Below, piece after piece: positions 11,202 through 54,958 of a stretch of DNA of 64,000 nt. This stretch comes from Candidatus Pacearchaeota archaeon. Its GTDB lineage: Archaea > Nanobdellota > Nanobdellia > Pacearchaeales > GW2011-AR1. The DNA lies in contig JACOYL010000009.1 in NCBI GenBank assembly GCA_016181895.1, forward strand, positions 3,346 through 67,345, given 5' to 3'. The notes under the pieces were generated by a model. That model did not search any database, was not told the origin of the DNA, and saw nothing but the letters and a program-made list of their open reading frames with translations. The position numbers and the translations under genes were made by a program. Position 1 is the first letter of the stretch. The number at the start of each line of letters is the position of its first letter.

Positions 11202-11202
11202 T

Positions 11203-11910: not shown

Positions 11911-11911
11911 T

Positions 11912-15362: not shown

Positions 15363-15523
15363 TGCTTGAAAAATTTATTTTTCATTTTCTAATTTCAGAG
15401 AAATTTATAATGTGTAAATTTCCTTTTCTTTCTCCGTACAAAAAACATAGAAATGGGGAATTTAAAAGGTTTTTGGTGTGTCCTTACACAAATTATTATA
15501 AATAATAATTTCTGTTTGCTTCA

Positions 15524-38220: not shown

Positions 38221-39579
38221 TTATTTTTTCTTATGCTTATGTTTCCTTTTTTGTTTTTCGATTATGTTGAATATTGCGTAAATCAATGCAATCAAAATTC
38301 CAGAGATTATCAAATTGTAGAAATTGAAAAACGGAAGCTGCACCAATGCAGGACATGCAAGTTTCTTTGAGTCAACTTCACAGGAAGCAGGCTTGTCTAA
38401 AAGTTCTCCACTCCATGTTGCCGTCCAACTGTATGAAATAAATCCGTCGCCGCATCCATCAGGGTCGCTGCTTGATGCCTTGATTGTGCATTTTCCTAAA
38501 ATGCTTTCCTGCCCTGTTGTAGGATCGTAATTAACAGTCTGAAATGCCGAATCGCATGTTGATGAAGATGTATCCCACTCGCAGAAACAAAATGACGGAG
38601 GCGAACATTCGCTGCTTTCAGGAACACTGTCCTCTGCAACATCGCACACATCATTATCAGTGCAATATGCTTGCCCATAATCAGAACACACAAACTTGTC
38701 ATCGCAGAATCCCGCGGTTAAAACAGTTCCTATCTTCAAATCCCCGCTTGTGGCTAATGAATTTCCCGCATTTGAAGCTTCGAAATAAAATTCCATTTCA
38801 TCATAATCTTCAACAAGAGCTTCAAGAAGAGGGTGTCCTTTATCCAAATCTATTTGAGTAATAAGCCATTCATAGTTTGCTCTTTCATCAGCACCTGTTT
38901 GGACTGTCACGGTTTTTATTAAGTCGTCTGCAGTAAGAGTATCATCCCTTTCTTTAATCTCAAATGTTATTTGCGTTCCTTGGGGAAGATTTGAATTCTT
39001 TAATATCATCCATATTTTTGTTGTGTCTGGAACAACATCTATCGTGCTTACAGACGTTACACCATTTTTAGACCATATGGCAGATGTTATTAGTGAAGAA
39101 GATGTACAATAAATTTTAACCCCGTAATCATTAATCGCTCCAATATGGGCATTTGTTTCTGCCGATAATGATAATACAGGGATGGGATATTTATCCGGAG
39201 CATATTCAGGGTCATTTGAATCTACACACTCCAAATCCCCGTAACAAACAAAATTTGCAAGAATTGTATAAGCAGTTCCCGATGGGATTTCAGCGTGTGC
39301 GTTTGTTGCAGATGAGAGTCCGATAACTTTGTTGGTTCCGGAACATGCTGCGTTGCCGCCGGCAAAATTACAGCAAACATATTTGTATCCGGAAGGACTC
39401 GCTTCTGTTGTTGCGCCGTGCGCATTCGTTAGGTCTGAAACTCTCATCAATTCATAATCAGAACCGGTATCGGTACAGGCTGTACTTTGAATCGAACAAC
39501 TTTCTCCGGTCGCAAAAACTCCGATTGAAAGAAACATTGTAAAAATCAACGTCAGTAATAAAACCACACCGCTTTTCAT
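38221..39579 (-). CDS. Cys-rich surface protein with three 'S..TNAH' repeats and a C-terminal TM/basic anchor
   Basis: Signal-like 'MKSGVVLLLTLIFTMFLSIGVFA'. 'SDLTNAHG', 'SSATNAHA', 'SAETNAHI'. Very Cys-rich throughout. C-terminus '...ILIALIYAIFNIIEKQKRKHKHKKK'. Start set at Met8 from TATA spacing. Confidence 0.6.
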   Translation of the reverse strand: MKSGVVLLLTLIFTMFLSIGVFATGESCSIQSTACTDTGSDYELMRVSDLTNAHGATTEASPSGYKYVCCNFAGGNAACSGTNKVIGLSSATNAHAEIPSGTAYTILANFVCYGDLECVDSNDPEYAPDKYPIPVLSLSAETNAHIGAINDYGVKIYCTSSSLITSAIWSKNGVTSVSTIDVVPDTTKIWMILKNSNLPQGTQITFEIKERDDTLTADDLIKTVTVQTGADERANYEWLITQIDLDKGHPLLEALVEDYDEMEFYFEASNAGNSLATSGDLKIGTVLTAGFCDDKFVCSDYGQAYCTDNDVCDVAEDSVPESSECSPPSFCFCEWDTSSSTCDSAFQTVNYDPTTGQESILGKCTIKASSSDPDGCGDGFISYSWTATWSGELLDKPASCEVDSKKLACPALVQLPFFNFYNLIISGILIALIYAIFNIIEKQKRKHKHKKK

Positions 39580-39623
39580 CTCCCCTATAACAAACCGCAT
39601 TTTATAAACTTTAATATTCTATT

Positions 39624-41466: not shown

Positions 41467-41922
41467 TCATCCCTGCGCCCAGCAAAACAGGTTTAGTTTT
41501 CTCGGAGCATATAAATTTTGATTCGCCCCAAAGAACGAGGATTGCACGAAAACGTCTTTGTCGTCGGGAACCAAATTAATGACGCAATCATCTTGGATTT
41601 CGCAAAGTTGCGCTTCGCATTTTAAATATCCCGGAGCTCTTGTTTCTATTTTATCTTTGACATCGTCTAGATTGTTAGGGGGCCCGTTAAAATCATCCCA
41701 TTCAATCGGAAGATTTCCAACAGGAACAGCAATGATATCATTTCTCAAATCATTATTCAGTTGTATTTCCCTCAAAATCGCATATTCCGAATCATAAACA
41801 AAAACCGAAGAATCCGGGACTTGAAGCCCGAGGCTGTTTATTATTATGAGCAAAGCGCCTGCTATTAGAAGTATGCTCGTGAAAGCCTCGACGATTTTTA
41901 TCCAACCTTGCTTGTTTTTCAT
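41467..41922 (-). CDS. Pilin-like protein with class III (type IV prepilin-like) signal peptide
   Basis: 'MKNKQG/WIKIVEAFTSILLIAGALLII'. Promoter-like 'AATATTAATAAACTT' lies upstream. Confidence 0.55.
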   Translation of the reverse strand: MKNKQGWIKIVEAFTSILLIAGALLIIINSLGLQVPDSSVFVYDSEYAILREIQLNNDLRNDIIAVPVGNLPIEWDDFNGPPNNLDDVKDKIETRAPGYLKCEAQLCEIQDDCVINLVPDDKDVFVQSSFFGANQNLYAPRKLNLFCWAQG

Positions 41923-42102
41923 AATCTAATTATCAATAATAAGTTTATTAATATTTTGAGAAAAATGGCTCGTTGCCCTGCAACTCGCATGTTGATATAA
42001 TGATAAATTAATGAAAAAATTTATCGCAAGTTTTTTAGAATAACAAGATTATGCATTGACATTATTTTCTTCTGGTAGTGCTGGCTTTTCAATGTCACAT
42101 AG

Positions 42103-42957
42103 TCACCATACCTTTATCGTCAAAAAACCTATTTGAAGATTTGCATCGCTGTCAAGATACTGCAGCGGAAATGTTGTTGCGTAAACATTTGTGTTTGGAA
42201 TTCCCCCGCATGCTTCAATATTTGGTTCAATTACTAATGTTCCATCTGCCGATTCAAACCTGAATGTAAACTCGTTTCCCTCGGGAACTCCAAGTCTTGT
42301 TTTAATGGTTTCTCCGCAGTCCAGTTCATATTCATCTTTCAATGCATAAATGTTTGACTCAAGGATTTGAGTTTGTTCTTCGACGAGGGAACCAACGGTA
42401 TAATCACTTACAGGATGGCAGCCGCTCATACTAACCTGATTTTGCTCTAATGCTTCTGAATAATATATCTTGAAAAAAAAACCGTTTGTCTGCAAATCTC
42501 CTGGTGCCCAAAAACCAACCTGTAAACTATTGCCAGAACGCGAATAATCAAAATTTTTAGAGTTGTTTTTTATTTTTAGCTGATTATTTGTAATATATGA
42601 TTCAGCAATTTGGTTGTCTCCGCTGCCAATTATATTTTGTAGGCTAACACAATCTTTATCTGGGCTTATCGGTTCGCCATCTATAGTCATCACTGTCAAA
42701 TCTCCAACCCTAAATTCCTCAACCAATGAAAATCGGAAAAAATCCAGCAACGATTGTTTGCTTGCCTGCGTTTTCAAGAACGGCTCTATTGCGGAGAACA
42801 TGAAAATTATGAACATTATGAAAATCACGAAAGACAAAACAAATCCTATTTGGGTTGCGCCCCTTTTCCGAGTTTTCGAGGAAAACGAGTGAACTCTTTT
42901 TTCAGTGCTTCGCGATGCGTATGCGTAATCGCTTTGTGAAACCCTTTTAGTTTTCAT
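42103..42957 (-). CDS. Pilin-like protein with a long (33-aa) basic leader before the class III motif
   Basis: '...SSKTRKRG/ATQIGFVLSFVIFIMFIIF'. No alternative start codon lies between 42957 and the hydrophobic core. Confidence 0.55.
   Translation of the reverse strand: MKTKRVSQSDYAYASRSTEKRVHSFSSKTRKRGATQIGFVLSFVIFIMFIIFMFSAIEPFLKTQASKQSLLDFFRFSLVEEFRVGDLTVMTIDGEPISPDKDCVSLQNIIGSGDNQIAESYITNNQLKIKNNSKNFDYSRSGNSLQVGFWAPGDLQTNGFFFKIYYSEALEQNQVSMSGCHPVSDYTVGSLVEEQTQILESNIYALKDEYELDCGETIKTRLGVPEGNEFTFRFESADGTLVIEPNIEACGGIPNTNVYATTFPLQYLDSDANLQIGFLTIKVW
42911..42935. repeat. 25-nt exact copy of the MITE core inside the pilin leader coding region
   Basis: 'cgcgatgcgtatgcgtaatcgcttt' is identical to 32767-32791. 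Confidence 0.85.
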
Positions 42958-43016
42958 GAATTATAAAAGAAAAACTCTTTTTAATATATTATGCTCTGGG
43001 CAAATTTTATAAAGGG

Positions 43017-43718
43017 GTGATGTTAAACAGATTTATGCAGGAAATAGAATTTGAAGAAAATATAGGCAAAATGGTGGATTTTCCATGGAAGGAGGAAGAT
43101 TTTGATTTTGCAAAAGAACCAATTAAAAAAACAAAGAGGGAATTGTCGCCGGTTGAAAGACTTGAAGAATCTTATAAAAATTCATGGATTGAAAAAAGGA
43201 AATCTTTTTACTTCAATACCAAAGCGTATGAAAATCTGCCTGCATCTTTGTCTTACAGTTACAGGGCGACAATAAAAACTTCCAAGGGTTTCAAAACTTT
43301 GACAAATCTTACGGAAGAGGGTTTAACGGGATTTTTGGAAGAAGTCGGGGAAAAATCTTCCTCTACTGTGTCTGGACCGGGATTAATTCAGAGACCGATT
43401 ATAAAAGGTTATAACATTGGAATTGGAATGCAAAACGGAAAAATGGTTTCTTCGGAAGAAGAATGCGGTTACATAATTGAGGTTTATGACCCGAGCCAGC
43501 CGATTGAGATACTCAGAATCGGGGAAGACGGATTCATTTACGAGAACAAGGGAAAAAGAAAACCGCAAATTAAAAAAGAGATGTTCTACAACAGGCGCAG
43601 GTATTCTAATGCTTATGCTTTCAGGGGAAAAGCCAAGGATTTGGAAAATTGCTTTTTTTCTGCCAACATCAAGGCAGTTCATATGGTTAAATCAAACAAG
43701 CCTAAATTTTTGAATTAA
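43017..43718 (+). CDS. Hypothetical protein
   Basis: 233-aa ORF convergent with the platform gene. No motif recognised. Confidence 0.45.
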   Translation: MMLNRFMQEIEFEENIGKMVDFPWKEEDFDFAKEPIKKTKRELSPVERLEESYKNSWIEKRKSFYFNTKAYENLPASLSYSYRATIKTSKGFKTLTNLTEEGLTGFLEEVGEKSSSTVSGPGLIQRPIIKGYNIGIGMQNGKMVSSEEECGYIIEVYDPSQPIEILRIGEDGFIYENKGKRKPQIKKEMFYNRRRYSNAYAFRGKAKDLENCFFSANIKAVHMVKSNKPKFLN

Positions 43719-44554
43719 CCGCCCAAAAAAATATTCGCCACAGAGGAAATCACGAAAGCCATCAGCATCAATGCAAAAGAGTGTTTTACTCCTGATTTCA
43801 GACTTCCTTCCGCAAGTTTTCCTATCGCCAAACCTGAGAACAATCCTTGAATCAAAATCAAATAAAGGAATGAATTCGTCACCTCTCCCTGAATGTTTTC
43901 AAACTGCGTTGAAACTCCCAACTCCCTTTCCAAACTGCCCGTTCCCTGAATTCCCGAAAGCAATGGAATAATCTTGAATTGCATCACAAGAACAATAATC
44001 ATGAACACGAAGAAAATTATGTATCCCTGAACAACCAGCGTCGATATCACTGCTTTTCTTTCTTTTTTCAATTTGTCGGAAGTGTTGACGGCTCCCGCAA
44101 CCGATTCCAGAATCTCGCCGATTTCTCCGCCCGATTTCTCCGCCTGTCCTATCAGCGTGATAGCTCGGGAAATCGTTTTGTTGTTGACGTCTTTTGAAAA
44201 AACCTGCAACGCCAAACTGAGCGGAATTCCCATGTAAATTTGGTTTGCAAGTTTGTTTATGTGCTGGCTCAAAACCCCGTAGGGTTTGTCTTTTATGTTG
44301 ACGATGCTCTTGCTTATCGGCGTTCCTGTTTTTACGGATTCGACGAGATTTCTTGAAAACTCGAGGAACATCTGCTCCTTTTCACTGGAGTCCCTTGCCT
44401 CTTTCATCAACGAAAGCACAAAAGGCAGAATTCCCGAGATGACCCCTATGCCGAGAATCAAAAAGAAAAATCTCGATTCCGAAATGAAAAAAGACATTCC
44501 GATTATTGTCAATGCGACCATTATTCCAATGAGATGAATTTTTTTCAATTCCAT
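43715..44554 (-). CDS. Type IV filament platform protein, single T2SSF domain (TadC/FlaJ-half-like)
   Basis: 'FSRNLVESVKTGTPISKSI...ALQVFSKDV...LIGQAEKSGGEIGEILESVA' flanked by TM helices. Confidence 0.75.
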   Translation of the reverse strand: MELKKIHLIGIMVALTIIGMSFFISESRFFFLILGIGVISGILPFVLSLMKEARDSSEKEQMFLEFSRNLVESVKTGTPISKSIVNIKDKPYGVLSQHINKLANQIYMGIPLSLALQVFSKDVNNKTISRAITLIGQAEKSGGEIGEILESVAGAVNTSDKLKKERKAVISTLVVQGYIIFFVFMIIVLVMQFKIIPLLSGIQGTGSLERELGVSTQFENIQGEVTNSFLYLILIQGLFSGLAIGKLAEGSLKSGVKHSFALMLMAFVISSVANIFLGG

Positions 44555-44814
44555 TTTTTATCTTTTCTTTTTTTAAATAATTTACTTTCAATATATCTTC
44601 CAAAATTTGTTTTAAATAAAATTTCTATAAGTATGAATATAAGTATTAAATGGATAATAAAGAACCATGTACGATTTAGTTTATTTCCTAAAATAAAAGT
44701 TAGAAAATCTCCAATGAGGCTTGCCCCCACTAATACTAATATTATAAAAAGGATTGTCACTGAAATTAATCTAAATTTTTCTTTCATTATAAAATTCCTA
44801 TTTTTTATTTCCAT
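44545..44814 (-). CDS. Small membrane protein between the two platform genes
   Basis: 89 aa with 2-3 TM segments. Overlaps both neighbours. Confidence 0.45.
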   Translation of the reverse strand: MEIKNRNFIMKEKFRLISVTILFIILVLVGASLIGDFLTFILGNKLNRTWFFIIHLILIFILIEILFKTNFGRYIESKLFKKRKDKKWN

Positions 44815-46139
44815 TACACATTCGGCTGTTTTAATTGAAGGAAAACGAGGAACGCTATATTTATTCCGATGACTCCGAGAATCATAATAAGGGTAATGGC
44901 GCTCGTGCTTAATGAAATTCCCAATCCGGAAATCCTCATCATCATCAGCAAAAGCATTAAAATCATGGGAGCCGCGATTACAACGGAAATGTAAATGTCC
45001 ATGAAAGTTTCCGCGGCTTTCGTGGATTTTTCCCTTTCAAGATTGTATTCAAAAAGCATGGTCTCCGCCCTTTCCCCGAAAAATTTCACCAAGTCTCCTC
45101 CGGAACTTATCGTCGTTGAAAGCCCGTTGAACAAATCCGCGAGTTTTTTGCTCGCGGTGTTGAAACTGCTGTTTCTCAGGGCGGAGACAAAATCCTGCCC
45201 AAGAACATTCACTGTATTGAGAAGCTTGTTGAATTCTTTTTCCAAATAAGGATATTCTTTTGTTGAAATTATTATGTTGAACATTTTCGTCGGATCAATT
45301 AATGAGCCAGAAATCGCAGCCATGTTTATCGTCGCAAAAGGCAGTTCCTGCTCGATTTTTTTTCCGACAGAATCCCTTTCCAGAGAAGGATAAAAATACA
45401 TGAAAAGCAATGTCGTCGTTGGGAAAATAAAAATCAGCCAGAATGTTTTCAGAAATCTCAGGGCAATGCTTTCAGTCCTCAAAGTCACAAAAGGAAGAAT
45501 GGTTCCAATATTGAAAAAAAGCAGAAACACCACAATCAAGACGGCGGCAAAAAGAGAAATCAACGTTGTGAGAATGATGACGGAAAGATAGCTCCTCAAA
45601 AGAAAATTCATGTTTGCCTTCACGATGTCAACCTGCAATTCCCTGAATCCGTATTTTTTTATCATCTCTGCGGAAAATTCCGAGAAAAGCTTGTTTGCGA
45701 ACCCAATATATCTGCTCGGCTTTTTTATTTTTTTTCTTTCGACTTTTTCCTCCTCCTCTTTTTGCTTCAGCCTTTTCAACGTTTCCTTTTCAATTTTTGA
45801 AATCTTGTATTTGTTCTGGAATTTGAGAAACTCGGGAACACTGAGAAAATTTTTTTTCCGGGATTTTCCTTCTGCTTTTCTTTCCGGAATTATTTGCATT
45901 ATTCTGGATTTCAAAGAGGCATTCAAGGACAATTGGTTCAATTTTTTAACGATTCCGTCGCCAACTTTTTTCATCTCTTTTTTCAGGGTTTTTATCTGCT
46001 CTTCTATCTCTTTTTTGTCTCCTGAATTGGATTTTTTTCCCATTTCTTTTGAAAAGACGTTTATCTCCTTGACCATTCTTACTTCCTTTGAAATGTCCCT
46101 TTTAAAGTCGAGAAAAAAATCTTCTTTTTTATTCAGCAT
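44814..46139 (-). CDS. Type IV filament platform protein, single T2SSF domain with a K/E-rich N-terminal extension (TadB/FlaJ-half-like)
   Basis: 'ELPFATINMAAISGSLIDPTKMF...LRNSSFNTASKKLADLFNGLSTTISSGGDLVKFF' plus TM helices. Confidence 0.75.
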   Translation of the reverse strand: MLNKKEDFFLDFKRDISKEVRMVKEINVFSKEMGKKSNSGDKKEIEEQIKTLKKEMKKVGDGIVKKLNQLSLNASLKSRIMQIIPERKAEGKSRKKNFLSVPEFLKFQNKYKISKIEKETLKRLKQKEEEEKVERKKIKKPSRYIGFANKLFSEFSAEMIKKYGFRELQVDIVKANMNFLLRSYLSVIILTTLISLFAAVLIVVFLLFFNIGTILPFVTLRTESIALRFLKTFWLIFIFPTTTLLFMYFYPSLERDSVGKKIEQELPFATINMAAISGSLIDPTKMFNIIISTKEYPYLEKEFNKLLNTVNVLGQDFVSALRNSSFNTASKKLADLFNGLSTTISSGGDLVKFFGERAETMLFEYNLEREKSTKAAETFMDIYISVVIAAPMILMLLLMMMRISGLGISLSTSAITLIMILGVIGINIAFLVFLQLKQPNV

Positions 46140-46308
46140 TCAAAACCTCCGCGATTTTTTCCTGAATTTCAACCATTGTTTTTTTCGTTTTGTTGAATTT
46201 TTCAACGTCACCTGCTTTATAATATCTTTCAAGGCTTGGTTCTAAGTCCTCCATAGATTTCACCATTTGCTCGAGAAAAGATGTATCTTTTTCCATGTTA
46301 TTCACCAT
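46129..46308 (-). CDS. Small coiled-coil ORF (59 aa) coupled to the platform gene
   Basis: Below the track cutoff. 'MVNNMEKDTSFLEQMVKSMEDLEPSLERYYKAGDVEKFNKTKKTMVEIQEKIAEVLNAE'. Its stop codon overlaps the start region of the 441-aa ORF. Confidence 0.35.
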   Translation of the reverse strand: MVNNMEKDTSFLEQMVKSMEDLEPSLERYYKAGDVEKFNKTKKTMVEIQEKIAEVLNAE

Positions 46309-46316
46309 TTTTCTAA

Positions 46317-46437
46317 TTTTCCGTGTTTCGCGATGCTTTTTTATTCAGTGTTTGCCGATGCCTTTCGTTGCGAAGCGTATGCAATCGCATCGCTATGCGT
46401 AATCGCTTTTCAATTTAAAACAGAAATACGTTATTAA
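46317..46437. repeat. Partial MITE-like repeat copy
   Basis: 'ccgtgtttcgcgatgc...gtgtttgccgatgc...gctatgcgtaatcgctttt..tttaaaacag' is collinear with the 32625-32820 and 39624-39877 elements. Confidence 0.6.
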
Positions 46438-46644
46438 ATTTTACTTAACTGGATATTATTCCCATTACCTTCATCGCGATATTAATGAGGTTATCCAACC
46501 ACCAACCCCTGACCATCGACCCAAAAGAATGTTAACTAATCATCAAATTTTATTAAACAAATTAAAAAATTCTTTACATTAACATTTATATCAATAAGAT
46601 AGTATGATAATGCGAGCGTATTTTTAAAATTCTTATTTTTCTGC

Positions 46645-48216
46645 CTATTGAATCCCGAATTCCCTTAAAACTTTCTCGGGTTTTTTGTAATATTCGTTTA
46701 TTATTTCCTGGACTTTTTCAAACCCGAAAATTTTTCTTTGATACATCATGTAAATAATCTTGCTTCTTCTTCTGAACTCAAGCTCGATTTCCTCGATTCT
46801 TTGCCCCGTCATTCTTGAAATTTTTTCGAAAATTCTGCTGTTTCTCTTGAAATAAAAACTGTCGTCAATCGGATTCCACGTGAATGGAGTGTTTGTCAAT
46901 GCAACTCCTTCCGGAGTTATGTTTATTATTTCCACGACTTCCTTGAGTTTTCTCGTTTCCTGTTTTTTGACAACCGCGTGCGTCATAACACAAACAGCGT
47001 CGAGAACATTAACAAGCGAAGGAGAAAGTTCTATCGGAGGGGTTTCAAGCCTTTTTACGACGGTATCGACGGAGTCCGCGTGCATCGTGCTTATTGAACT
47101 GTGCCCTGAGGCCATTCCCTGGAACAAAACAAAAGCCTCCTTGCCTCTGACTTCCCCGACAATCACGTAATCCGGATTTTGCCTGAAAGAGCTTCTCAAT
47201 AACGCGAACAAATCAATTTCCCCCAAGCCGCCTATTCCCGTAGCCGTTCTTGCAACGCTGGGCAGCCAGTTTTCCCTTGGAAGATTCAATTCCCTCGTGT
47301 CTTCGATGCTTACAACTCTTGACTCTGGGGGAATGAAAAAAGCCATTGCATTCAGCAAAGTTGTTTTTCCCGACGACGTTCCTCCTATGATCAATATGTT
47401 CATTTCATTTTCAATAAGCAGCCAAAGATAGGCAAGCATCTCGGGGCTTAAAGTGTTGAATTCGATAAGCTGCGGCGGCGTCCATGGTTCTTTCGTGAAT
47501 TTTCTTATCGTGAATGTTGGTCCTCTTGATGTGATGTCTTTAGTGTATGTCGCATTTACTCTGCTTCCGTCGGGCAAACTGCCATCTAAAATAGGATTTG
47601 CGTATGAAATGTATTTCCCGACCCTTTGCGCGAGTTTCTCCACGAAGCTCGCGAGTTTCTCCACGTCATTGAAAATAACATTTGTTTTCATGTTTCTGTA
47701 CATTCTGTGGACAATGTAAACCGGCGTTTCGGCGCCGTTGCACTCAATGTCCTCCACGAAATAATCCCTCAGCAACGGTTCCGCCTCGTTGAATCCGACG
47801 AAGTTTCGCGCAAGATAATAATAAATTTTCTTGAAGCTTTCATAAGGAATGTCCAATCCGAGTTCAACGGCAAGAATCCTGAACATCTTGTCAATGTAAT
47901 CAAGCAAAACATTTATTTCCTTTTCTACGATTGTGTCGAAATTAATCATGTTCTCCATCGCGGAAATAAGCTCTTCCCTGTAATATTCTTCTTTTTTTGT
48001 CAAAATCGGCTCCTCAATCTCATAAACCAGTTCGGAAATTTTGTTGTTCCAATAAATGTGAGCGAATGCAAAAGGAGCAATCAACGTGTATCTGACATTG
48101 ACTTTTGTCTTGTCATCTGTTTTTTTCAATCCTGGGATTTCAGGAGAGAAATTTATCTCCACTTTTGGATAACTCTGGATTCCAACTCCAATGAGGTTTT
48201 CTTTTTTTATTTCCAT
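46645..48216 (-). CDS. FlaI/PilB-type secretion ATPase (archaeal type IV filament assembly ATPase)
   Basis: Walker A 'GGTSSGKTTLLNA', 'SIEDTRELNL', 'GEVRGKEAFVLFQGMASGHSSISTMHA'. FlaI-like N-domain 'YTLIAPFAFAHIYW...YEIEEP'. Confidence 0.9.
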   Translation of the reverse strand: MEIKKENLIGVGIQSYPKVEINFSPEIPGLKKTDDKTKVNVRYTLIAPFAFAHIYWNNKISELVYEIEEPILTKKEEYYREELISAMENMINFDTIVEKEINVLLDYIDKMFRILAVELGLDIPYESFKKIYYYLARNFVGFNEAEPLLRDYFVEDIECNGAETPVYIVHRMYRNMKTNVIFNDVEKLASFVEKLAQRVGKYISYANPILDGSLPDGSRVNATYTKDITSRGPTFTIRKFTKEPWTPPQLIEFNTLSPEMLAYLWLLIENEMNILIIGGTSSGKTTLLNAMAFFIPPESRVVSIEDTRELNLPRENWLPSVARTATGIGGLGEIDLFALLRSSFRQNPDYVIVGEVRGKEAFVLFQGMASGHSSISTMHADSVDTVVKRLETPPIELSPSLVNVLDAVCVMTHAVVKKQETRKLKEVVEIINITPEGVALTNTPFTWNPIDDSFYFKRNSRIFEKISRMTGQRIEEIELEFRRRSKIIYMMYQRKIFGFEKVQEIINEYYKKPEKVLREFGIQ

Positions 48217-48225
48217 TTTTTATTT

Positions 48226-48759
48226 TTAGCTTACAACAATGTCAATTATTATTTTTCCTTCTGCATTTTCTCCCTTGTTTTCTATTGAAATAGTGTAGGG
48301 CGTTGTCGAATCTTCTATTGTTCTTTCATCGTTTGCCCCGTTATTAGTTATATCGTAATCGTAAGTTGATGTCAAGGTTACTGTGTTTGTTCCCCCGATG
48401 TCTTCTGTCATTGCTTCCATGTTTCCTATGCTGACTGTTTGTCCTGGCTCGCTGTAAACATAATTTGTTTCCATTTCAAAAATTATTTTGTCATTAACAC
48501 CATCTATCTTTAATTTTCCCTTTCTTATGTTTGTTTCAACGAGCCTTTTGTTTCCCGTCCCCCCATGAACGACAGAGAGTATTACATTATTTATATCCTT
48601 CACTGCGTTTATGCTTTGCTCTATCACAGAACGGTCCTGAATTTCCTCGATTCTTGGGATGACGAAAGCCAAAACCGCGCCAATCATCGTCAATGCGATA
48701 AGAGTGTAAATCACGGTTTCAACCCAGATTTGTCCGAATTTATTCATGCCCCTTTTCAT
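48226..48759 (-). CDS. Pilin-like protein (class III signal; Glu at +5)
   Basis: 'MKRGMNKFG/QIWVETVIYTLIALTMIGAVLAF'. Lies 9 nt upstream of the ATPase gene. Confidence 0.6.
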   Translation of the reverse strand: MKRGMNKFGQIWVETVIYTLIALTMIGAVLAFVIPRIEEIQDRSVIEQSINAVKDINNVILSVVHGGTGNKRLVETNIRKGKLKIDGVNDKIIFEMETNYVYSEPGQTVSIGNMEAMTEDIGGTNTVTLTSTYDYDITNNGANDERTIEDSTTPYTISIENKGENAEGKIIIDIVVS

Positions 48760-49188
48760 TTCAAACTAAGAAAGATTTTGTTTAAATAATTAACTTAAAG
48801 TCCCGCCTCTCGCAATCCCACTTGATATTAATATGAAAAATTTCACTCGTGAAGCTGCCCTTCTCGCGACCCGACTTTATTATTAATAATTTTAAAATTG
48901 TTAAAGTCAAATCGCTCGCCCACCCTTGGAAACAAGTATTAATGCAAAATCCGGGTTCATCAACTATTAATTCAGGATAAATTATCTGCACATTAGCCTT
49001 TTTCATGTAATATTTATGCTCCAAAAATCAACGTTAACCCACAATAATAATTTTATAATGATTTAATTGGGATTTTATATTATTATTCATATCAATATTC
49101 TATAATTTTCCCATCCGCATAAGAGAATAAGTTTAATTTTCAAACAATTTTAATATCGCGTCCAACTGATAATTTAACTATGAAAGAT

Positions 49189-49238
49189 TTTCTGCATTAA
49201 TCTTTTTTACATCAATATGCGAGTTCGCAGAACGAGCC
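49189..49238. repeat. Intergenic repeat module abutting the pilin stop codon
   Basis: 'tttctgcattaatcttttttacatcaatatgcgagttcgcagaacgagcc'. Related to 1755-1792, 54971-55023 and the inner left arm of 39624-39877. Confidence 0.6.
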
Positions 49239-49240
49239 AA

Positions 49241-49738
49241 TCATGCAAGCAAGGAACAATCATCAATGTCTGAAACAACATCTGAAACCTCGCACTGAAC
49301 CCCTGAAATTATCGGAGCGATTTGAATCGTGTTCGGTCTTGTACTAGAATCATAAAAATAAGTTCTGCCGCTGTTTTTTGGAGGAAGTCTTGCTAAATCT
49401 GTTCCATTAAAATATTCCAAACCATTAATTAACTGCTCTTCGTTTGTCAATGTAAAAGGCGTTGTTTCAGCTTGCGTTGAAATTGAAACCAAAACACCTT
49501 CAACGTCGATATCTCCGATGCTGATTGCAAAATGGACTTTATTAGTTGTATCGTCAAAACAAATGTACTTTTCATCCAATGTTATTTTCCCGAAATTTCC
49601 AAAGCACGATTCTGAACTTTTAACTTTTTCTGTAATAAGGTTATTGATGAATGTCCAGACAATTACAACAGAAACAACAGTAAGTGCTATTAGAATCAAT
49701 GTCACGACAATTCCTGAAAGCCCTGATTTGTTTTTCAT
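49241..49738 (-). CDS. Archaeal pilin (Pilin_N/DUF1628-type N-terminus)
   Basis: 'MKNKSG/LSGIVVTLILIALTVVSVVIV'. Confidence 0.7.
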   Translation of the reverse strand: MKNKSGLSGIVVTLILIALTVVSVVIVWTFINNLITEKVKSSESCFGNFGKITLDEKYICFDDTTNKVHFAISIGDIDVEGVLVSISTQAETTPFTLTNEEQLINGLEYFNGTDLARLPPKNSGRTYFYDSSTRPNTIQIAPIISGVQCEVSDVVSDIDDCSLLA

Positions 49739-50022
49739 ATAAAAGAATAAAGAAATATTATTTATTAAATCTTCCCGTCAAAAATCCTAATTTATAAATC
49801 TCTTTCCGTTTATAGAAACAGATGCTAATGTAAAAACCGCCTTTATCAACTATTAATCGTCTGTAAAGAATTTTTGTACATTAACCATTTTCAGATTATT
49901 GTCGTGAAGTTGTTCACCCCTATCAATCAAGTTTTAATAGAAAACTTCCTCATATATTTTTCAATGGGTTGCACCAAGCGATAAAGTGGATTTCAGATTA
50001 AAATCTGTTTCTGCATTAAAAT

Positions 50023-50493
50023 TCAAAACGAAATTTCCCGTCCATAAAGTTTTTCATCGCAGGCAAATGAAGCCTGCGCCCCCTTTTGAGTAGTTCCGAG
50101 GAGAATTGGAATCAGCGTTATGTCTCCTTGCAAACCGCCGACATTGACTAAAGTTGCTTCTCCTTCAACTAATCCATCATTTTCATCATCCCAATCGGCA
50201 CGCAACTCGCTCAAGTCTTTTGTGTCATGTCCTCCGGGACCTGAAGTTATAACTTTAAAGCCGTAAATGGGAACACTTCCAATATTTTTAATTGCCAAGT
50301 CCCCTGTTACATCAGAATAACTTGCATCAAATTGCACGTCATTGCAAACCAGTTGAATGTTTTGGTCGTTTTTCATCCCAGCTTCCTGTATAAATCCTCG
50401 GAACCACATAAAAATAATCAATCCGGAAACGACGACAAGCCCAACGAGAAGCACTGTTGCGATTACGGGGGACAAGCCTCTTTTATTTTGCAT
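50023..50493 (-). CDS. Archaeal pilin (Pilin_N/DUF1628-type N-terminus)
   Basis: 'MQNKRG/LSPVIATVLLVGLVVVSGLIIF', the classic motif. Confidence 0.8.
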   Translation of the reverse strand: MQNKRGLSPVIATVLLVGLVVVSGLIIFMWFRGFIQEAGMKNDQNIQLVCNDVQFDASYSDVTGDLAIKNIGSVPIYGFKVITSGPGGHDTKDLSELRADWDDENDGLVEGEATLVNVGGLQGDITLIPILLGTTQKGAQASFACDEKLYGREISF

Positions 50494-50603
50494 TAAAGAA
50501 TAAAGGAGAGAGCGTTTATAAAAGTTTTTTAAGTTTAGTCTCTAAGATAATCTAATGAGAATAAATTAGAAAAGTATATTAATGGAAGAAAATTAAATTT
50601 TTT

Positions 50604-50804
50604 ATGGAATCAAGTCAAAAAGTCTCATTAGAAAAGATTTACAAAAAACTGGAAAATTTGGAGTTATTTATGAAAAAATTTGAGCAATTTGCTGAAGATT
50701 TGGAATTTGCGAGAAGAACAGAAGAGGCCTACAGAAAGCATGAAGAAGGGGATTTTGTTGAGATGGATTCTGAAAAGTTCTTAAAAGAACTTAAAAAATG
50801 GTAA
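50604..50804 (+). CDS. Putative antitoxin (orphaned partner of the decayed RelE)
   Basis: 66-aa helical acidic ORF. Its stop codon overlaps the ATG of the relE remnant (ATGGTAA). Confidence 0.4.
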   Translation: MESSQKVSLEKIYKKLENLELFMKKFEQFAEDLEFARRTEEAYRKHEEGDFVEMDSEKFLKELKKW

Positions 50805-51045
50805 AGATAATTTATGATTAAAAATTTCAACGAATTATTTCTAAAATAAAAAACTCTTCTGTTCAAAATAGCATAAAAATAAAATTGCAAAAATTATAGA
50901 AAATCCAGAAATAGGCAAACCGATGAGATATATAAGGAAAGGAACAAGAGAAGTTTATGTTGGTTCTTTTCGCCTTTCTTATAAATATTCAAGAGAAGAA
51001 AGTTTAATAGAGTTTCTTGATTTCTATCACAAAGATGAACAATAG
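50798..51045 (+). pseudogene. relE: Decayed RelE/ParE-family toxin gene
   Basis: 'MVKIIYD' is followed by an in-frame TAA (50819-50821). Further stop codons and a frameshift follow near 50893. The C-terminal frame reads 'ENPEIGKPMRYIRKGTREVYVGSFRLSYKYSREESLIEFLDFYHKDEQ*'. Confidence 0.6.
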
Positions 51046-51086
51046 CCTTCTTTTTCACCCCCCAATAATAACAACAAATCATAAGA

Positions 51087-51095
51087 TTTATAAAG
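51087..51095 (+). promoter_or_regulatory. TATA box upstream of the Tat/lipoprotein gene
   Basis: 'tttataaag'. Its spacing favours the 51123 ATG over 51101. Confidence 0.4.
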
Positions 51096-51122
51096 TTTGA
51101 ATGTCAATGAATTTTAAGAAAA

Positions 51123-52097
51123 ATGATATTGGAAAGCAAATTAACCAGAAGGGAAGCGCTAAAGAGGGGAGCGGGTTTAGCAGGCATGTTGGCTTTTGGC
51201 AAACTTTTCACTGCTTGTGCCGACGACGGAAGCAAAAAACATTCTCCAGAAATAACTTCAAATCCTGTAACAGAAGTCAATGAGGGACAAATTTACAATT
51301 CTAAGATTACCGCAACAGACGAGGACAATGCTGAGTTGGAATATAAAATAAACAAAGCTCCTTTATGGCTTTCAATGGAAGAAAGAAGTGATGGGATTTA
51401 CATAACAGGAATGGCTCCTCAGGTTTCTGCAGACACTCCAAATCCGGTTGAGGTTGAAGTTTCCGACGGAAAAAGAACAGACAAGCAAGAATACACTCTA
51501 ACTGTAAAGGATGTTCCTGAACCGGTAAATCATGCCCCGACCGCATTTTTGAGCGAGCCTGATTTTGGCGATGGTTTAAGCGGAACATATTTTGTAACAG
51601 TTGGCGGAGATGATGAAGACGGAGATGGCATTGAAGTTTACGCAAGATTTAACGGCGAGGAGTGGAATTTCTATGACAACGGGCAAACCATCGAGAGGCC
51701 GATAGTTGAGGGACAAAATACCATAGAATCAAAAGTTATTGATGAATTTGGAAATGAATCAGAAATTGTGATGAAGAGTTTTTACTCACCGACGGAGGAG
51801 GAGGCGAGGGAGAAGATTGAGGAGATATTGAATGCAACTAGTAACGGGGGTATTATAGAGGACGATAATTTTAGAAATACTGGAATTATGGTTGATTATG
51901 CTATAGAACCACAACCTTCTGTTCCAAGTGGAGATGTCATTATAGAATATATTGGAGAAAATGATAATTTAACTCAAGAAATGAATGACAAAGAATATTT
52001 TGATGCTAATAATATTCCTAATCTTTACATGAATAAATTACCTGTCACAGAAATAGAACTAAGAGTTAATAAATTTATTCAAGATATCTGGCAATAA
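51123..52097 (+). CDS. Tat-signal lipoprotein with Ig/cadherin-like domain
   Basis: 'LTRREALKRGAGLAGMLAFGKLFTAC' (RR motif plus lipobox-like Cys). 'ITSNPVTEVNEGQIYNSKITATDEDNAELEYKI...' is a putative-Ig pattern. Confidence 0.6.
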   Translation: MILESKLTRREALKRGAGLAGMLAFGKLFTACADDGSKKHSPEITSNPVTEVNEGQIYNSKITATDEDNAELEYKINKAPLWLSMEERSDGIYITGMAPQVSADTPNPVEVEVSDGKRTDKQEYTLTVKDVPEPVNHAPTAFLSEPDFGDGLSGTYFVTVGGDDEDGDGIEVYARFNGEEWNFYDNGQTIERPIVEGQNTIESKVIDEFGNESEIVMKSFYSPTEEEAREKIEEILNATSNGGIIEDDNFRNTGIMVDYAIEPQPSVPSGDVIIEYIGENDNLTQEMNDKEYFDANNIPNLYMNKLPVTEIELRVNKFIQDIWQ

Positions 52098-52110
52098 AAT
52101 TTCTTCTTAA

Positions 52111-53511
52111 TTAATACTTTACTCCACTAATATTAATTCCATCAATGTAAAATTTATCACCATCAGAATTCATCCCACCGACAAAACTAAATTGTGTAGA
52201 ACTGGTAAAAGAAGATGTGTCAGTTAAAATGACATTTTGAGGAATCCAGCCATCTTGAGTTGTTGAACTACACCAAGAATTTATTACAGATGTTCCTACT
52301 TTAAATTGAAGACAATCTGAACCCTCAAAACTATTATAATATCCGCTCCAGTTTACTGTTACGGTTGTATACCCTACTAAATTGAAATTTTGTGATATTG
52401 AGGCTGTACCCCCTCTTATTCTAATATTTGCAATACCCCCTTTTTGTCCGGCGTCTGTAACATTGATTGTAGGACTTTCCACAGTATTCCTATTAACATT
52501 TCCACTAATTGTCCATCCTTGATTTACAATTGTATTATCTTCAAATCCAAAAACTTTCAAAGAGGGGTATTTAAGAGCCACGATATTTAATGTTTCTACC
52601 TGACAACTACTTGAGCAACCATCTCCGCTAAGAGGCGGACTTCCTACATCATTATCACATTGCTCACTTTCCTGATTAACTGTTCCATCTCCACAAACAG
52701 CTGCCGGTGGAGGAGCAGTGCATCCGGTAAACGTGCAACTTGATGTACAACTCAAAGTTCCAGTCCACCCACTTTCAAAAGCAGTTTCACAGTTTTTCCC
52801 ATCCAAATCAGTTCCATCACACTGCTCTGTTCCTTCTATATTATTATTAAGATTACAGCTTATTCCAAATGTTCCGCAAATTAAATTTTCTTTTATCCTC
52901 GCATCTGTGCAACTAACAGGTCTTATTCTGTTTTTTATCGTCTCATATCTTAAAGGAACTATTTCAATTGAATAAATGCATTGGCCAGAACTAGAGGAAC
53001 ACGTGCCACCATTGACACTTAAAGGACCAATTGCAAAAGAATCGCTTAATGTATCTCCAGCACTTTTCGGATTTATGTCATTTCCTCCTGTCCAATATTT
53101 TACAAAACCCCCGACTTTTCTTTTGGGATTGGTGTTATAAGAAGACAAATCATTCACGGCAAGTTCCTGATCTGAAGATGTTGTTGCATGAATAAAATAT
53201 CCCGCGATGTCAAATCTTCCGTTATTTTTAAGAGTTAAATCAAATCTGTCGTCACTGCAATCATTGTTGTAACTTTGTATGAAAAGCGAAACGCCTTCAT
53301 CGCATTTTATTGATTCCTGGGGAACGTATGTTTTTACCCACTGATAGACAATTATGCTCATCAGGATTGCCATTGATATGAGCAATATGTACCCAATCAT
53401 CACGCTGATTCCTCTGCGATTTTTCAGTAAACCCTTTCTTTTTCGAGCCAGAGACGAACGCCAAGATGTTGTTCGTGAGGAAGATGGGTGAACTTGTGAA
53501 CCTCTTTTCAT
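52111..53511 (-). CDS. Pilin-N-terminus fused to a Cys-rich repeat adhesin module (466 aa) with a 34-aa leader
   Basis: '...LLKNRRG/ISVMIGYILLISMAILMSIIVY'. 'CGDGTVNQESEQCDNDVGSPPLSGDGCSSSCQVE' is a Myxococcus-type Cys-rich repeat (~52590-52830). C-terminal beta-sandwich-like region ending 'GDKFYIDGINISGVKY'. Confidence 0.7.
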   Translation of the reverse strand: MKRGSQVHPSSSRTTSWRSSLARKRKGLLKNRRGISVMIGYILLISMAILMSIIVYQWVKTYVPQESIKCDEGVSLFIQSYNNDCSDDRFDLTLKNNGRFDIAGYFIHATTSSDQELAVNDLSSYNTNPKRKVGGFVKYWTGGNDINPKSAGDTLSDSFAIGPLSVNGGTCSSSSGQCIYSIEIVPLRYETIKNRIRPVSCTDARIKENLICGTFGISCNLNNNIEGTEQCDGTDLDGKNCETAFESGWTGTLSCTSSCTFTGCTAPPPAAVCGDGTVNQESEQCDNDVGSPPLSGDGCSSSCQVETLNIVALKYPSLKVFGFEDNTIVNQGWTISGNVNRNTVESPTINVTDAGQKGGIANIRIRGGTASISQNFNLVGYTTVTVNWSGYYNSFEGSDCLQFKVGTSVINSWCSSTTQDGWIPQNVILTDTSSFTSSTQFSFVGGMNSDGDKFYIDGINISGVKY

Positions 53512-53561
53512 AAAACAAAAAGAAAATACAAATTAATAAATGTTTTGAGAAAATCTTAATA

Positions 53562-53891
53562 TTAAAGCCGCAATAATTCTCTTATCTCTTCATCTATCTT
53601 TTTAAGATGGAATTCTTCCAAATTACCTATCTTTGAAATAAATCTTTTTTTATCCAATGCTTGAAGTTGAAGAACGAGGGCAACAGAATCTTTATCTAAT
53701 TTATTATCTTTTGATTTATCAACTCTCAAGGTATGGGGAAGTTTGTTTAAAGCTTGTAAGTTTGATGTTAAAGGAACAACTAATACAAGATTTGTTCCAG
53801 TATCGCCCATTATTACAGAAGGTCGTGTTCCGGCTTGTTCTTTCCCGCCTCTCAAAGGGAAATCAATAATCCATATCTCTCCTTTTTTCAT
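53562..53891 (-). CDS. mazF: MazF/PemK-family toxin
   Basis: 'MKKGEIWIIDFPLRGGKEQAGTRPSVIM...VVPLTSN'. Start reassigned to 53891. Confidence 0.8.
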   Translation of the reverse strand: MKKGEIWIIDFPLRGGKEQAGTRPSVIMGDTGTNLVLVVPLTSNLQALNKLPHTLRVDKSKDNKLDKDSVALVLQLQALDKKRFISKIGNLEEFHLKKIDEEIRELLRL

Positions 53892-53937
53892 ATTCAATGC
53901 CTCAGGAAAAATGGAAATTTCACATTTCCTTTGTTCA

Positions 53938-54108
53938 TTATAAATTATTTTTCTCAAAAAAATCCGCGCTGTCCTCAATTGATGCCTGTTCCAATTCAAT
54001 CATTTCTTCTTCTAAAGATAATCTTTCCTTTATGTAATCAACATCCGACTGAAGTCTCGTCAGTTTTGTCATGATTTCTTTTACATTGGCTTTTATTTCC
54101 TGTTCCAT
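53938..54108 (-). CDS. Candidate antitoxin (56 aa) upstream of mazF
   Basis: Below the track cutoff. 'MEQEIKANVKEIMTKLTRLQSDVDYIKERLSLEEEMIELEQASIEDSADFFEKNNL'. Confidence 0.4.
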   Translation of the reverse strand: MEQEIKANVKEIMTKLTRLQSDVDYIKERLSLEEEMIELEQASIEDSADFFEKNNL

Positions 54109-54194
54109 AATTTATCTAAAAATCACAATTATATAAGCTTTTTGTTAAATGAGATATATTCAGGAATCTTCCAATTTTTCAAGCGCGTTTTCAC

Positions 54195-54252
54195 CACGCC
54201 CCCGCAACCCGAGTTTTAATAATAAAAAACTTTACATCAAGTTGTCAGTTGA
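54195..54252. repeat. Direct repeat (GC box + 'tttacatcaagttgtcagttga') downstream of pilin gene 54327-54857
   Basis: The 22-mer at 54231-54252 matches 54937-54958 at 20 of 22 positions. Both are preceded by a GC-rich box. Confidence 0.6.
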
Positions 54253-54326
54253 GTACGTTTACGGAATTTTGCGCGTTAATTTTTTGCTGCTGCGAAAAAC
54301 ATGACGAAGTTTTGAGCATATTCATT

Positions 54327-54857
54327 TCAACCATTCGTCGTCGTATAAACATTTCCCTCAATTTCCTTGGAAACAATGAAAAAGAAATTTTGCCCCTCGT
54401 TCAACGTGAATGAATAACTTACTCCGTTAACAGTAATGGTTCCAGTTGGAGATGAAACAGAAATATCCCTTGTTGTAAAAATCCCCTGACTTAAAGTTAT
54501 ATCTATTCCGCTCCCGGAACTAAAATCAACATTAACAATTCCATCACTTCTTTTCTTCAATCCGGCAAAAGTTATTTCCGAAACCGTGCCAAAAATATAA
54601 TAAAAGTCGTCGGCGTTGGAATAAGTCGAGTAATCTTCTGCAAAATCAGTTAAAAGTTGTTTCATGTCGGCATCATTCATGCTTTGGCTTATCCCGTAAT
54701 CAATGGCTTTCTCGCTTTCGAATTTCAGTTCCTCGCCGACATGGTAAAATTTCACGTCGCTTTGTTTTACAACAGAGTTTGTTATCGTAGCCAATCCTGC
54801 GACAAGTCCTATGATTATTACGGAAATTATAATGAAAAATTGTCCTCTTTTGTTCAT
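54327..54857 (-). CDS. Pilin-like protein with class III signal peptide
   Basis: 'MNKRGQ/FFIIISVIIIGLVAGLATI'. The track's longer start (54908) reads through the GC-box repeat and is rejected. Confidence 0.6.
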   Translation of the reverse strand: MNKRGQFFIIISVIIIGLVAGLATITNSVVKQSDVKFYHVGEELKFESEKAIDYGISQSMNDADMKQLLTDFAEDYSTYSNADDFYYIFGTVSEITFAGLKKRSDGIVNVDFSSGSGIDITLSQGIFTTRDISVSSPTGTITVNGVSYSFTLNEGQNFFFIVSKEIEGNVYTTTNG

Positions 54858-54889
54858 GAAAAGAAATATTGAAAGAAGTTTATTAATAT

Positions 54890-54958
54890 TTCCCGCCCAC
54901 CCGCCCAAAGAGCAGACAGGTTTTAACGATAAAAATTTTACATCAAGTTTTTAGTTGA
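54890..54958. repeat. Direct repeat partner (GC-box 17-mer + 'tttacatcaagtttttagttga') upstream of the pilin gene
   Basis: The 17-mer is identical to 1680-1696. On the gene strand it reads GGGCGGGTGGGCGGGAA followed by ATATTAATAAA, i.e. BRE/TATA position. Confidence 0.6.

Follow-up and report, generated by a model that had tools for sequence, protein, structure and literature searches.

A putative adhesive type IV pilus with seven conserved pilin-like families in a Candidatus Pacearchaeota archaeon

Gene content of the locus

A stretch of 64,000 nucleotides (nt) from the genome assembly of a Candidatus Pacearchaeota archaeon (contig JACOYL010000009.1, positions 3,346 to 67,345; referred to as the window in the following) carries a type IV filament gene set of 11 open reading frames (ORFs). 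These ORFs lie on the minus strand between positions 41467 and 54908 and encode an assembly ATPase, two platform proteins, a small protein of 59 amino acids (aa), s59, and seven pilin-like proteins, which we refer to as p193, p466, p156, p165, p177, p284 and p151. An earlier note on this DNA had pointed to the ATPase, the platform genes and the seven pilin-like ORFs; all of them are present on the minus strand where it had placed them, and only the start of p193 needed revision. Orthologs were collected by BLAST searches of the window proteins against the ORFs of nine related loci (denoted L001, L002 and so on in the following), and two further contigs were reached via p177 homologs of ~52% identity. 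Compared with these orthologs, all 11 ORFs are intact and of full length.

The seven pilin-like ORFs had been proposed to start with class III signal peptides. Indeed, each of them displays a predicted K/R-G cleavage site (the cleavage point is marked by an arrow below) ahead of a stretch of 20 or more hydrophobic residues, and this motif is kept in the orthologs of every family; the assignment is based on these conserved N-terminal motifs together with family models and alignments. A scan of the whole window for class III motifs returned 10 lines from nine ORFs, six of which are pilins of the locus, while p177 escaped the search pattern. The remaining three ORFs are two surface proteins (at 38221 and 56852) and a short ORF at 50894. 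No small class III pilin of the Flp or EpdE kind was found among the ORFs between positions 41000 and 55500.

Motor, platform and a small associated protein

The ATPase (46645-48216, minus strand, 523 aa) belongs to the FlaI/PilB/GspE family. It matches the Pfam model T2SSE (7e-31), and its top NCBIfam model is the archaellum ATPase FlaI (1e-115), with a score of 387 bits that stays under the cut-off of 550 bits. The nucleotide-binding motifs, read from the translation, are intact: Walker A (GGTSSGKTT), Asp box (IEDTRE), Walker B (VIVGEVRG) and His box (GHSSISTMHA). Among proteins of solved structure, it is closest to Archaeoglobus fulgidus GspE (AfGspE; 2OAP, 368 bits), followed by FlaI (4II7, 276 bits) and, at a distance, CpaF (168 bits); it also matches the PilB3_C model weakly. 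Its identity to proteins on contigs labeled Woesearchaeota, Pacearchaeota or Nanoarchaeota ranges from 55 to 91%.

Downstream of the ATPase follow the two platform genes, both on the minus strand. The first encodes a TadB-like protein of 441 aa (44814-46139), composed of a charged, helical cytoplasmic N-terminal domain of ~200 aa and a single T2SSF domain (2.9e-11), with detectable transmembrane (TM) segments. The second encodes a TadC-like protein of 279 aa (43715-44554), likewise with one T2SSF domain (1.2e-14), that is 86% identical to its ortholog in L001. Both score far under the cut-offs of the ArlJ/FlaJ models, yet they divide this model between them, the TadB-like protein covering positions 24-248 of 555 (the N-terminal half) and the TadC-like protein positions 271-545 (the C-terminal half). 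As judged from these alignments, the two genes together are a FlaJ-type platform that is split in two. The matches to T2SSE, FlaI and T2SSF thus bear out the FlaI/PilB-type ATPase and the pair of platform genes that the locus had been credited with. In L001, a gene resembling low-molecular-weight phosphatases or ArsC (8292-8708; assigned by eye from its N-terminus) lies between the platform genes.

The start of the TadB-like gene is overlapped by 11 nt by s59 (46129-46308, minus strand), which encodes a small, soluble, helical protein. While s59 has no significant match in Pfam, it is conserved in position: orthologs occur at the same place in L001, L002, L003, L004, L007 and L009, and L010 and L012 have ORFs of 54-62 aa there.

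PilA-like pilins and a modular relative

Three of the seven pilin-like proteins belong together. The protein p156 (50023-50493, minus strand; KRG↓LSPVIATVLLVGL) is a canonical archaeal type IV pilin: with its mature N-terminus LSPVIATVLL, it matches TIGR02537, the model of archaellin and pilin N-termini, with 30.6 bits (cut-off 20), and its family profile matches the solved archaeal pilins 8FK7 (4e-8), Iho670 (5KYH, 4e-4) and 8REY (2e-3). Orthologs of p156 were found in all relatives. Its PilA-like paralog p165 (49241-49738, minus strand; KSG↓LSGIVVTLILIAL, starting with LSGIVVTLIL) reaches 21.7 bits with the same model, has conserved cysteine pairs, and aligns to p156 in hhalign with a probability of 96% over 133 columns. 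The third member is p466 (52111-53511, minus strand; RRG↓ISVMIGYILL), whose N-terminal domain aligns to the p156 family with 97%. All three show a G↓(V/I/L)S start of the PibD/FlaK type. These comparisons show p156, p165 and the N-terminal domain of p466 to be PilA-like paralogs at the sequence level, and p156 to be related to archaeal pilins that are known to form filaments. Consequently, the statement that the seven pilins share almost nothing beyond the N-terminal helix does not hold for this trio, whose relationship extends past the helix; it does hold for the other four.

The protein p466 (HYT25_02400, 466 aa, annotated as a hypothetical protein) is considerably more elaborate. Its AlphaFold2 (AF2) model, with a mean pLDDT of 75.8, comprises a 34-aa leader, a helix (33-62), a pilin β-sandwich (76-215), a cysteine-rich stalk (~217-360) and a jelly-roll head (363-465). 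Both β domains are predicted with a pLDDT above 90, whereas the cysteine-rich stretch is of low confidence; in sequence, the latter is a DUF4215-type repeat (myxo_disulf_rpt, 26.2 bits). In Foldseek searches, the head matches carbohydrate-binding modules (CBMs), with CBM16 (2ZEX; E 3e-7, TMt 0.67) at the top, followed by CBM4, CBM22 and CBM61. This head is found in only 10 of 106 homologs that have the same pilin domain; the remaining homologs (256-542 aa) carry other C-termini, for which precomputed Pfam annotations include DUF4215, CARDB and Laminin_G_3. Likewise, among the orthologs at the related loci, a Laminin_G_3 head is present in L010 and no head in L003, L005, L006 and L012. On the strength of the structural model, p466 is a modular pilin with a CBM-like head that is swapped between lineages, and this head could set what the cell adheres to. 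The earlier suggestion of a filament with exchangeable tips therefore survives in an evolutionary sense and for p466 only, where the C-terminal head differs from lineage to lineage; of an exchange of cassettes within the genome there is no sign.

The leaders preceding the K/R-G site are unusually long in p466 (34 aa, 53410-53511) and in p284 (33 aa, 42859-42957), compared with 6-14 residues in their orthologs. An AT-rich, TATA-like box is found ~25-35 nt upstream of the ATG of each separated pilin gene, and these boxes support the upstream start codons of p466 and p284.

Four pilin-like families without annotated relatives

The other four pilin-like proteins, p177, p193, p284 and p151, have no relatives in Pfam, NCBIfam or PDB profile searches, and in hhalign they match one another and the PilA-like group over ~30 N-terminal residues only. 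The first of them, p177 (HYT25_02370, 48226-48759, minus strand), is annotated as a hypothetical protein, and its stop codon lies 9 nt ahead of the ATPase start. Its N-terminal motif, G↓Q(I/V)W(V/I)ETVIYTLIA, is strongly conserved, with W, E, Y, T, L and I invariant across 494 homologs. This motif places a Gln at position +1 and a Glu at +5, a signature shared by bacterial pilins and by the substrates of the peptidase EppA, namely the Epd pilins (PMC4371748), and PulG and UPF0333 are among the source names of the homologs. Gln at +1 is also present in p193 (54327-54857, minus strand; MNKRG↓QFF). The ORF of this protein extends mechanically to a TTG at 54908, but its true start is most likely the ATG at 54857, which directly yields MNKRG↓Q. 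Its K-x-G-Q-F motif is invariant in six orthologs, the family form being RG↓QFY; orthologs are present in L003, L005, L006, L010 and L012.

The gene for p284 (HYT25_02335, 42103-42957, minus strand; RKRG↓ATQIGFVLSFVIF), another annotated hypothetical protein, follows downstream of the platform genes. Its family is characterized by G↓(A/S)xxxGFxxSFVIF at the N-terminus and by IKVW at the C-terminus, the protein of the window ending in TIKVW. The AF2 model (pLDDT 86.7, pTM 0.70) consists of a 49-residue N-terminal helix and two β-rich lobes, thus resembling a pilin-like lollipop, a shape that the model of p466 has as well; for the p284 model, a Foldseek search of the PDB returned no fold match (best E 0.08). 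Finally, p151 (41467-41922, minus strand; KQG↓WIKIVEAF) has a Trp at +1, a Glu at +6 and four conserved cysteines. Its family, with 729 representative clusters at E<=1e-3, shares the motif RG↓W(I/L)(K/R)I(V/I)EA; E12, R60 and C102 are invariant, and W7, C107, C113 and C147 are conserved to at least 90%.

Conservation across relatives

The number of pilins in the locus had been read as an expansion, and their divergence as variability within a repertoire. The comparison with Woesearchaeota and Pacearchaeota relatives points elsewhere, as the seven families recur there as one-to-one orthologs with hardly any change in order. Among the loci that we examined, each family has exactly one ortholog per genome in a fixed position, with p193 in a marine lineage as the exception. 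The gene order is conserved in L001 to L007 and L009 to L013, over a range of ATPase identities from 91% down to ~64% that includes marine lineages. It is seen most clearly in L003 (ATPase identity 72%), where p193, the p466 N-terminal domain, p156, p165, p177, the ATPase, s59, TadB, TadC, p284 and p151, followed by RtcB, form a compact and partly overlapping series. A contiguous string of these genes is also present in L010, while L005 and L006 show the upstream half of the same order and L004, L007 and L009 the downstream half. The two contigs reached via p177, one of which is of marine origin (Tara Oceans), keep the order as well. The sole rearrangement that we observed is in the marine locus L012, where the p193 ortholog (15325-15867) no longer heads the operon but lies between p284 and p151. 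Since one-to-one orthologs recur in a fixed order, seven is the ancestral set, and the sequence comparisons show that these families are a fixed parts list of the lineage and not a repertoire particular to this genome. What distinguishes the pilins is their pace: relative to L003, the pilin-like proteins are 26-47% identical and the ATPase 72%, so that they evolve faster. They are not gained or lost.

Two of the related loci show peculiarities of their own. The contig of L006 (DATJPO010000031.1) is labeled 'Candidatus Omnitrophota bacterium', although it carries the archaeal operon, including the five upstream pilins in full and an ATPase of 77% identity; mis-binning is the probable cause. In L001, the closest relative, the p151 ortholog and RtcB read as a single ORF of 596 aa (10321-12111), owing either to a lost stop codon or to an assembly error.

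The conserved neighborhood extends beyond the operon. A membrane-anchored nuclease with an SNase domain (9e-16), a lamin-tail domain (LTD, 1.4e-8) and an N-terminal TM segment is encoded at 59797-60582 on the minus strand, and in four lineages such an SNase-LTD gene precedes the operon by a few kb (L003 4796-5593, L010 3242-4024, L012/L013 1-456). This linkage could reflect a functional tie, such as DNA scavenging, or inherited gene order only.

Insertions, spacers and repeats

In the window, the operon is interrupted by genes that compact operons lack. At the junction between p193 and p466 lies a module on the minus strand (53562-54108) that consists of MazF (ATG at ~53891 to 53562; PemK_toxin, 1.1e-22) and a MazE-like ORF (53938-54108), the latter assigned by size and position only. 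This module is missing from L003, L005, L006 and L010, where the orthologs of p193 and p466 abut or overlap. A gene for a Tat-signal lipoprotein-like protein (51123-52097, plus strand), with the motif TRREALK and a lipobox-like LFTAC, has a homolog at the same junction in L002, there within an insertion of ~6.5 kb, and is likewise absent from compact operons. On the same strand, a RelB-like ORF of 66 aa (50604-50804) precedes the remnant of a RelE gene (50805-51045), in which three-frame translation finds the RelE-like N- and C-terminal parts out of frame with each other, with stops. A gene for a protein of 233 aa is also an insertion, which the close relative L007 carries and the compact operons do not, and several spacers of 260-480 nt are missing from the compact operons, too.

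Altogether, about eight intergenic junctions of the locus hold insertions, and in close relatives the same junctions hold other cargo, such as PIN/VapBC pairs or the 6.5-kb block of L002. MazEF, the RelBE remnant, the Tat lipoprotein and the 233-aa gene are later, lineage-specific insertions and not parts of the machine, and the apparent complexity of the locus is shown to be due to toxin-antitoxin (TA) and other insertions, not to a diversification of pilins. The elements that the earlier note had seen interleaved with the pilus genes are confirmed as far as MazF, the RelE remnant and the Tat and lipobox motifs are concerned. Its repeat elements are weak. They amount to weak inverted repeats and to a repeat of 43 nt with 79% identity, found in two spacers (48929-48971 and 49815-49857) that are enlarged and separate pilin genes. 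One copy of the 43-nt repeat lies within an imperfect inverted repeat (49814-49843 / 49983-50012). The 43-nt repeat is statistically not compelling and may be the remnant of a small inserted element. A 15-mer common to two upstream regions was dismissed as not significant, because shuffled sequences reach three matches in 13 of 100 cases.

TA modules are unusually dense in the window as a whole (278-1217, 9165-9766, 16484-16831, 50604-51045 and 53562-54108), with MNT/HepT, PIN, two MazF, and RelB plus the broken RelE as the types represented. In relatives, PIN/VapBC-like ORFs lie at or beside the same pilus junctions (L002 7735-8345, L007 755-1162, L005 203-550); insertions may occur at these junctions repeatedly.

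Comparison with known filament systems

Of the components that define the type IV filament superfamily, the locus holds a secretion ATPase, a T2SSF platform and class III pilins; the prepilin peptidase was not found in the window. In gene content and order, the locus is unlike the well-characterized pili (Epd, Aap, Ups and haloarchaeal PilA/PilB3C3). It is also distinct from the archaellum. Archaellin (PF01917), FlaH/KaiC, FlaF/G, FlaCDE and FlaX were not found in Pfam and NCBIfam scans of the locus and the window (56 ORFs by Pfam), the ATPase misses the FlaI cut-off and is nearer to AfGspE, the platform proteins fall far short of the ArlJ models, and the platform is split, unlike FlaJ. The previous classification of the locus as a pilus rather than a motility system therefore stands, both on the missing archaellum accessory genes and on the affinity of the ATPase.

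The ATPase provides a first orientation among the archaeal pili. According to Makarova et al. (2016, PMC4858521), AfGspE belongs to clade 2 (arCOG01817), together with the ATPases of Nanoarchaeum equitans and Nst1, and many loci of this clade possess a pair of tadC-like genes. With an ATPase nearest to AfGspE, a weak PilB3_C match, PilA-like pilins of the TIGR02537 type and two platform genes, the locus resembles clade 2 or System 2, represented by Haloferax PilB3/PilC3, and its ATPase may provisionally be placed there by sequence affinity. Haloferax differs in encoding its PilA pilins away from pilB3C3, whereas here the pilins lie with the motor, and none of the Pfam models of haloarchaeal pilins is matched by the four families without annotated relatives. 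Similarities to the Epd pili of Methanococcus maripaludis (clade 1 or System 1), a system also reported in DPANN archaea (10.64898/2026.04.22.720090), include two platform genes (there EpdJ/K) and many distinct pilins. Epd pilins further combine a Gln at +1 with a Glu at +5, as p177 does; in all, Gln +1 occurs here in two of the seven families (p177 and p193) and Glu +5 in one (p177). Three pilins depart from the Epd pattern with their start of the PibD/FlaK type, and neither a 9-TM peptidase of the EppA type, for which the whole window was searched, nor a major pilin of ~70 aa is found in or near the locus, which is a weak test, as the major pilin of Methanococcus is encoded elsewhere. Clade 1 is also described as the deepest, fast-evolving branch, whereas the ATPase strongly resembles clade 2 and clade 3 proteins.

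More distant systems differ further. For the Aap and Ups pili of Sulfolobales, the UpsA model yields 26 and 19 bits (cut-off 130) and the UpsF model 23-34 bits (cut-off 400), and no accessory gene was found. In comparison with bacterial Tad systems, the CpaF score is far under those of the archaeal relatives, and neither a pilin of Flp size in the locus nor a secretin in the window was found.

The closest counterparts are probably to be found within the same lineage. Two type IV pilus (T4P)-like loci have been reported to be conserved over cluster-2 DPANN archaea, including Woesearchaeota and Pacearchaeota (Hamm et al., 2024, PMC11291902). These loci share with ours the lineage, a CpaF/FlaI-type ATPase, a TadC-type platform and PilA-like pilins. 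They further contain filament proteins annotated as FlaF as well as helical or coiled-coil proteins; the helical parts of the locus described here are the N-terminal domain of the TadB-like protein and s59. The locus probably belongs among the T4P-like loci of cluster-2 DPANN, and DPANN T4P loci as such are already known. The focus of the study is on Nanohaloarchaeota and on large coiled-coil proteins, and its available text does not mention the seven-family set, the split platform or the lectin-head pilin. What the present analysis adds is the definition of this set as ancestral and fixed, with four families that lack annotated relatives, a fold of p284 that is absent from the PDB, and a swappable head.

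Two bacterial systems are instructive as parallels. Bacterial modular type IV pilins, such as Streptococcus sanguinis PilB and PilC, carry an adhesin or lectin module on the C-terminus of a pilin scaffold. The graft plan of p466 resembles theirs, but there is no sequence relation, and the linker in p466 is a cysteine-rich DUF4215 repeat. A further difference is that the p466 head is replaced between lineages, being CBM-like, Laminin_G_3, CARDB or absent. The second parallel concerns the minor pilins FimU-PilVWX and GspHIJK, which, like the four unique families, are mutually dissimilar pilin-like proteins next to the motor genes, with one of them much larger than the rest and some lacking the Glu at +5. 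This likeness is an analogy, as sequence and fold searches gave no match.

A model of the pilus and its alternatives

Pacearchaeota and Woesearchaeota are abundant, uncultured and ultra-small archaea that are thought to live attached to hosts. In our view, the locus probably gives rise to an adhesive type IV pilus without a role in motility, one that belongs to the core genome of Woesearchaeota- and Pacearchaeota-type DPANN. The following steps are derived from the established behavior of type IV filaments. The prepilins would enter the membrane, where an A24 peptidase encoded outside the window would cut after the K/R-G site. The hexameric ATPase would then drive the TadB/TadC-like platform to lift the pilins from the membrane, and these would stack through their N-terminal helices into a helical fiber. 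The shaft might consist of p156, of p165 or of both, while p193, p177, p284 and p151 might be minor pilins with a role in priming assembly or in capping or anchoring the fiber, analogous to the set of four core minor pilins known from bacterial T4P and type II secretion systems (T2SS). Lastly, p466 would display its glycan-binding head for contact with a host or a surface. Host attachment by such a pilus is plausible, because the head of p466 is CBM-like in its predicted structure and because field data report Pacearchaeota as strongly host-attached and enriched in the >2.5 um fraction (PMC7906910). In the same study, pili-like appendages reaching host cells were imaged on ultrasmall cells, the taxon of which was not identified.

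Several points weigh against this interpretation. An A24 prepilin peptidase was detected in the 64-kb window neither by Pfam nor by a motif scan for at least four TM segments plus GxGD; the sole GxGD candidate (28773-29756, plus strand) is an 8-TM, presenilin-type SPP (PF06550, 1.7e-12) and was rejected. Prepilin peptidases are often encoded elsewhere, however, so that their absence from the window is compatible with membership in the type IV filament superfamily. The identity of the major subunit is a guess, for which p156 is the candidate. The pilin status of the four unique families is derived from the N-terminal motif and a single AF2 model, and these proteins could instead be non-polymerizing, membrane-anchored accessory proteins in the manner of FlaF and FlaG. 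Similarly, glycan binding by the p466 head is suggested by a likeness in fold at 16-21% sequence identity. Finally, the insertions break up the operon, and its coordinated expression is not assured.

Among other explanations, the locus might encode an uptake or secretion pseudopilus, that is, a short dynamic fiber which, together with the SNase-LTD nuclease, imports DNA or nucleotides, or else exports proteins, for a cell unable to make its own building blocks. The nuclease gene is a conserved neighbor of the operon in four lineages, the Gln +1 and Glu +5 of p177 are typical not only of EppA substrates and bacterial pilins but also of pseudopilins (PMC4371748), with PulG among the names of its homologs, and the large number of minor-pilin-like genes is reminiscent of T2SS and Com systems. 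Yet RtcB, for which a tie to a pilus is not plausible, is equally syntenic, and the linkage may therefore be inherited order only; in addition, a DNA channel of the ComEC or Ced type, a secretin and a second (retraction) ATPase were not found in the window, and a lectin-like pilin head suits adhesion better, which leaves this explanation unlikely in our view. We regard it as quite improbable that the locus holds an expanded, strain-variable repertoire of pilins that take turns as the tip of a single filament. The pilin-like proteins do outpace the motor in evolutionary rate by a factor of two to three, and the p466 head does differ among lineages, but each genome has one ortholog per family in a fixed position (p193 of the marine lineage excepted), extra copies, silent cassettes or recombination repeats were not found, and the four families, being unrelated past the helix, are not alternatives of one another.

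A motility organelle, be it a divergent archaellum or a twitching pilus, might be inferred from the FlaI model as the best NCBIfam match of the ATPase and from the Aap pili of Sulfolobales, which twitch without a retraction ATPase according to work cited in 10.64898/2026.04.22.720090. Against the shortfall of that match, the higher score of AfGspE, the archaellum genes missing from the scans and the split platform, we find this reading very improbable. It is most improbable that the locus is a decaying, non-functional remnant invaded by TA modules and other insertions. The insertions at about eight junctions and the RelE pseudogene in its midst would fit this reading, but the 11 machine ORFs are of full length, the ATPase motifs are intact, each separated gene has its TATA-like box, and L001, L002 and L007 keep all genes in spite of similar insertions.

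The putative adhesive pilus comes with a defined and conserved parts list, which includes a motor ATPase, a split platform, a partner of 59 aa, three PilA-like pilins and four uncharacterized families, and with the p466 head it offers a concrete candidate for the recognition of hosts or surfaces. A more far-reaching interpretation, which is doubtful when taken as a whole, sees in p466-type pilins a determinant of host range in Pacearchaeota and Woesearchaeota, in the four unique families a tip complex, and in the nuclease a possible co-operating partner. If it were true, a conserved pilus would present a lineage-specific, lectin-like head on a disulfide-rich stalk, and a swap of this head would retarget the symbiont to another glycan of a host envelope. 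The four families, including the p284 fold, would then be an archaeal priming or tip complex that evolved independently of the bacterial minor-pilin complex, and the pilus, jointly with the surface nuclease encoded nearby, might scavenge DNA from the host or the environment.

Further features of the window

Pfam scans of 56 ORFs of the window identified housekeeping genes (exosome, proteasome, Mre11/Rad50, aCPSF1, RtcB and others) as well as several TA pairs, and Rfam and tRNA scans yielded a single tRNA-Tyr that is distant from the locus. Just downstream of RtcB, two surface proteins with C-terminal TM anchors are encoded on the minus strand (35367-38054 and 38221-39600), one of which has a PKD domain while the other is cysteine-rich. 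Both are syntenic in L001 and L007, which places the pilus operon within a conserved neighborhood of cell-surface genes. A further surface protein, of 959 aa (56852-59731, minus strand), combines Ig-like domains with a Nup98-type autopeptidase domain (S59; PF04096, 4.9e-9) and has a TM anchor at its C-terminus; nucleoporin-like domains in DPANN proteins are mentioned by Hamm et al. (2024, PMC11291902).

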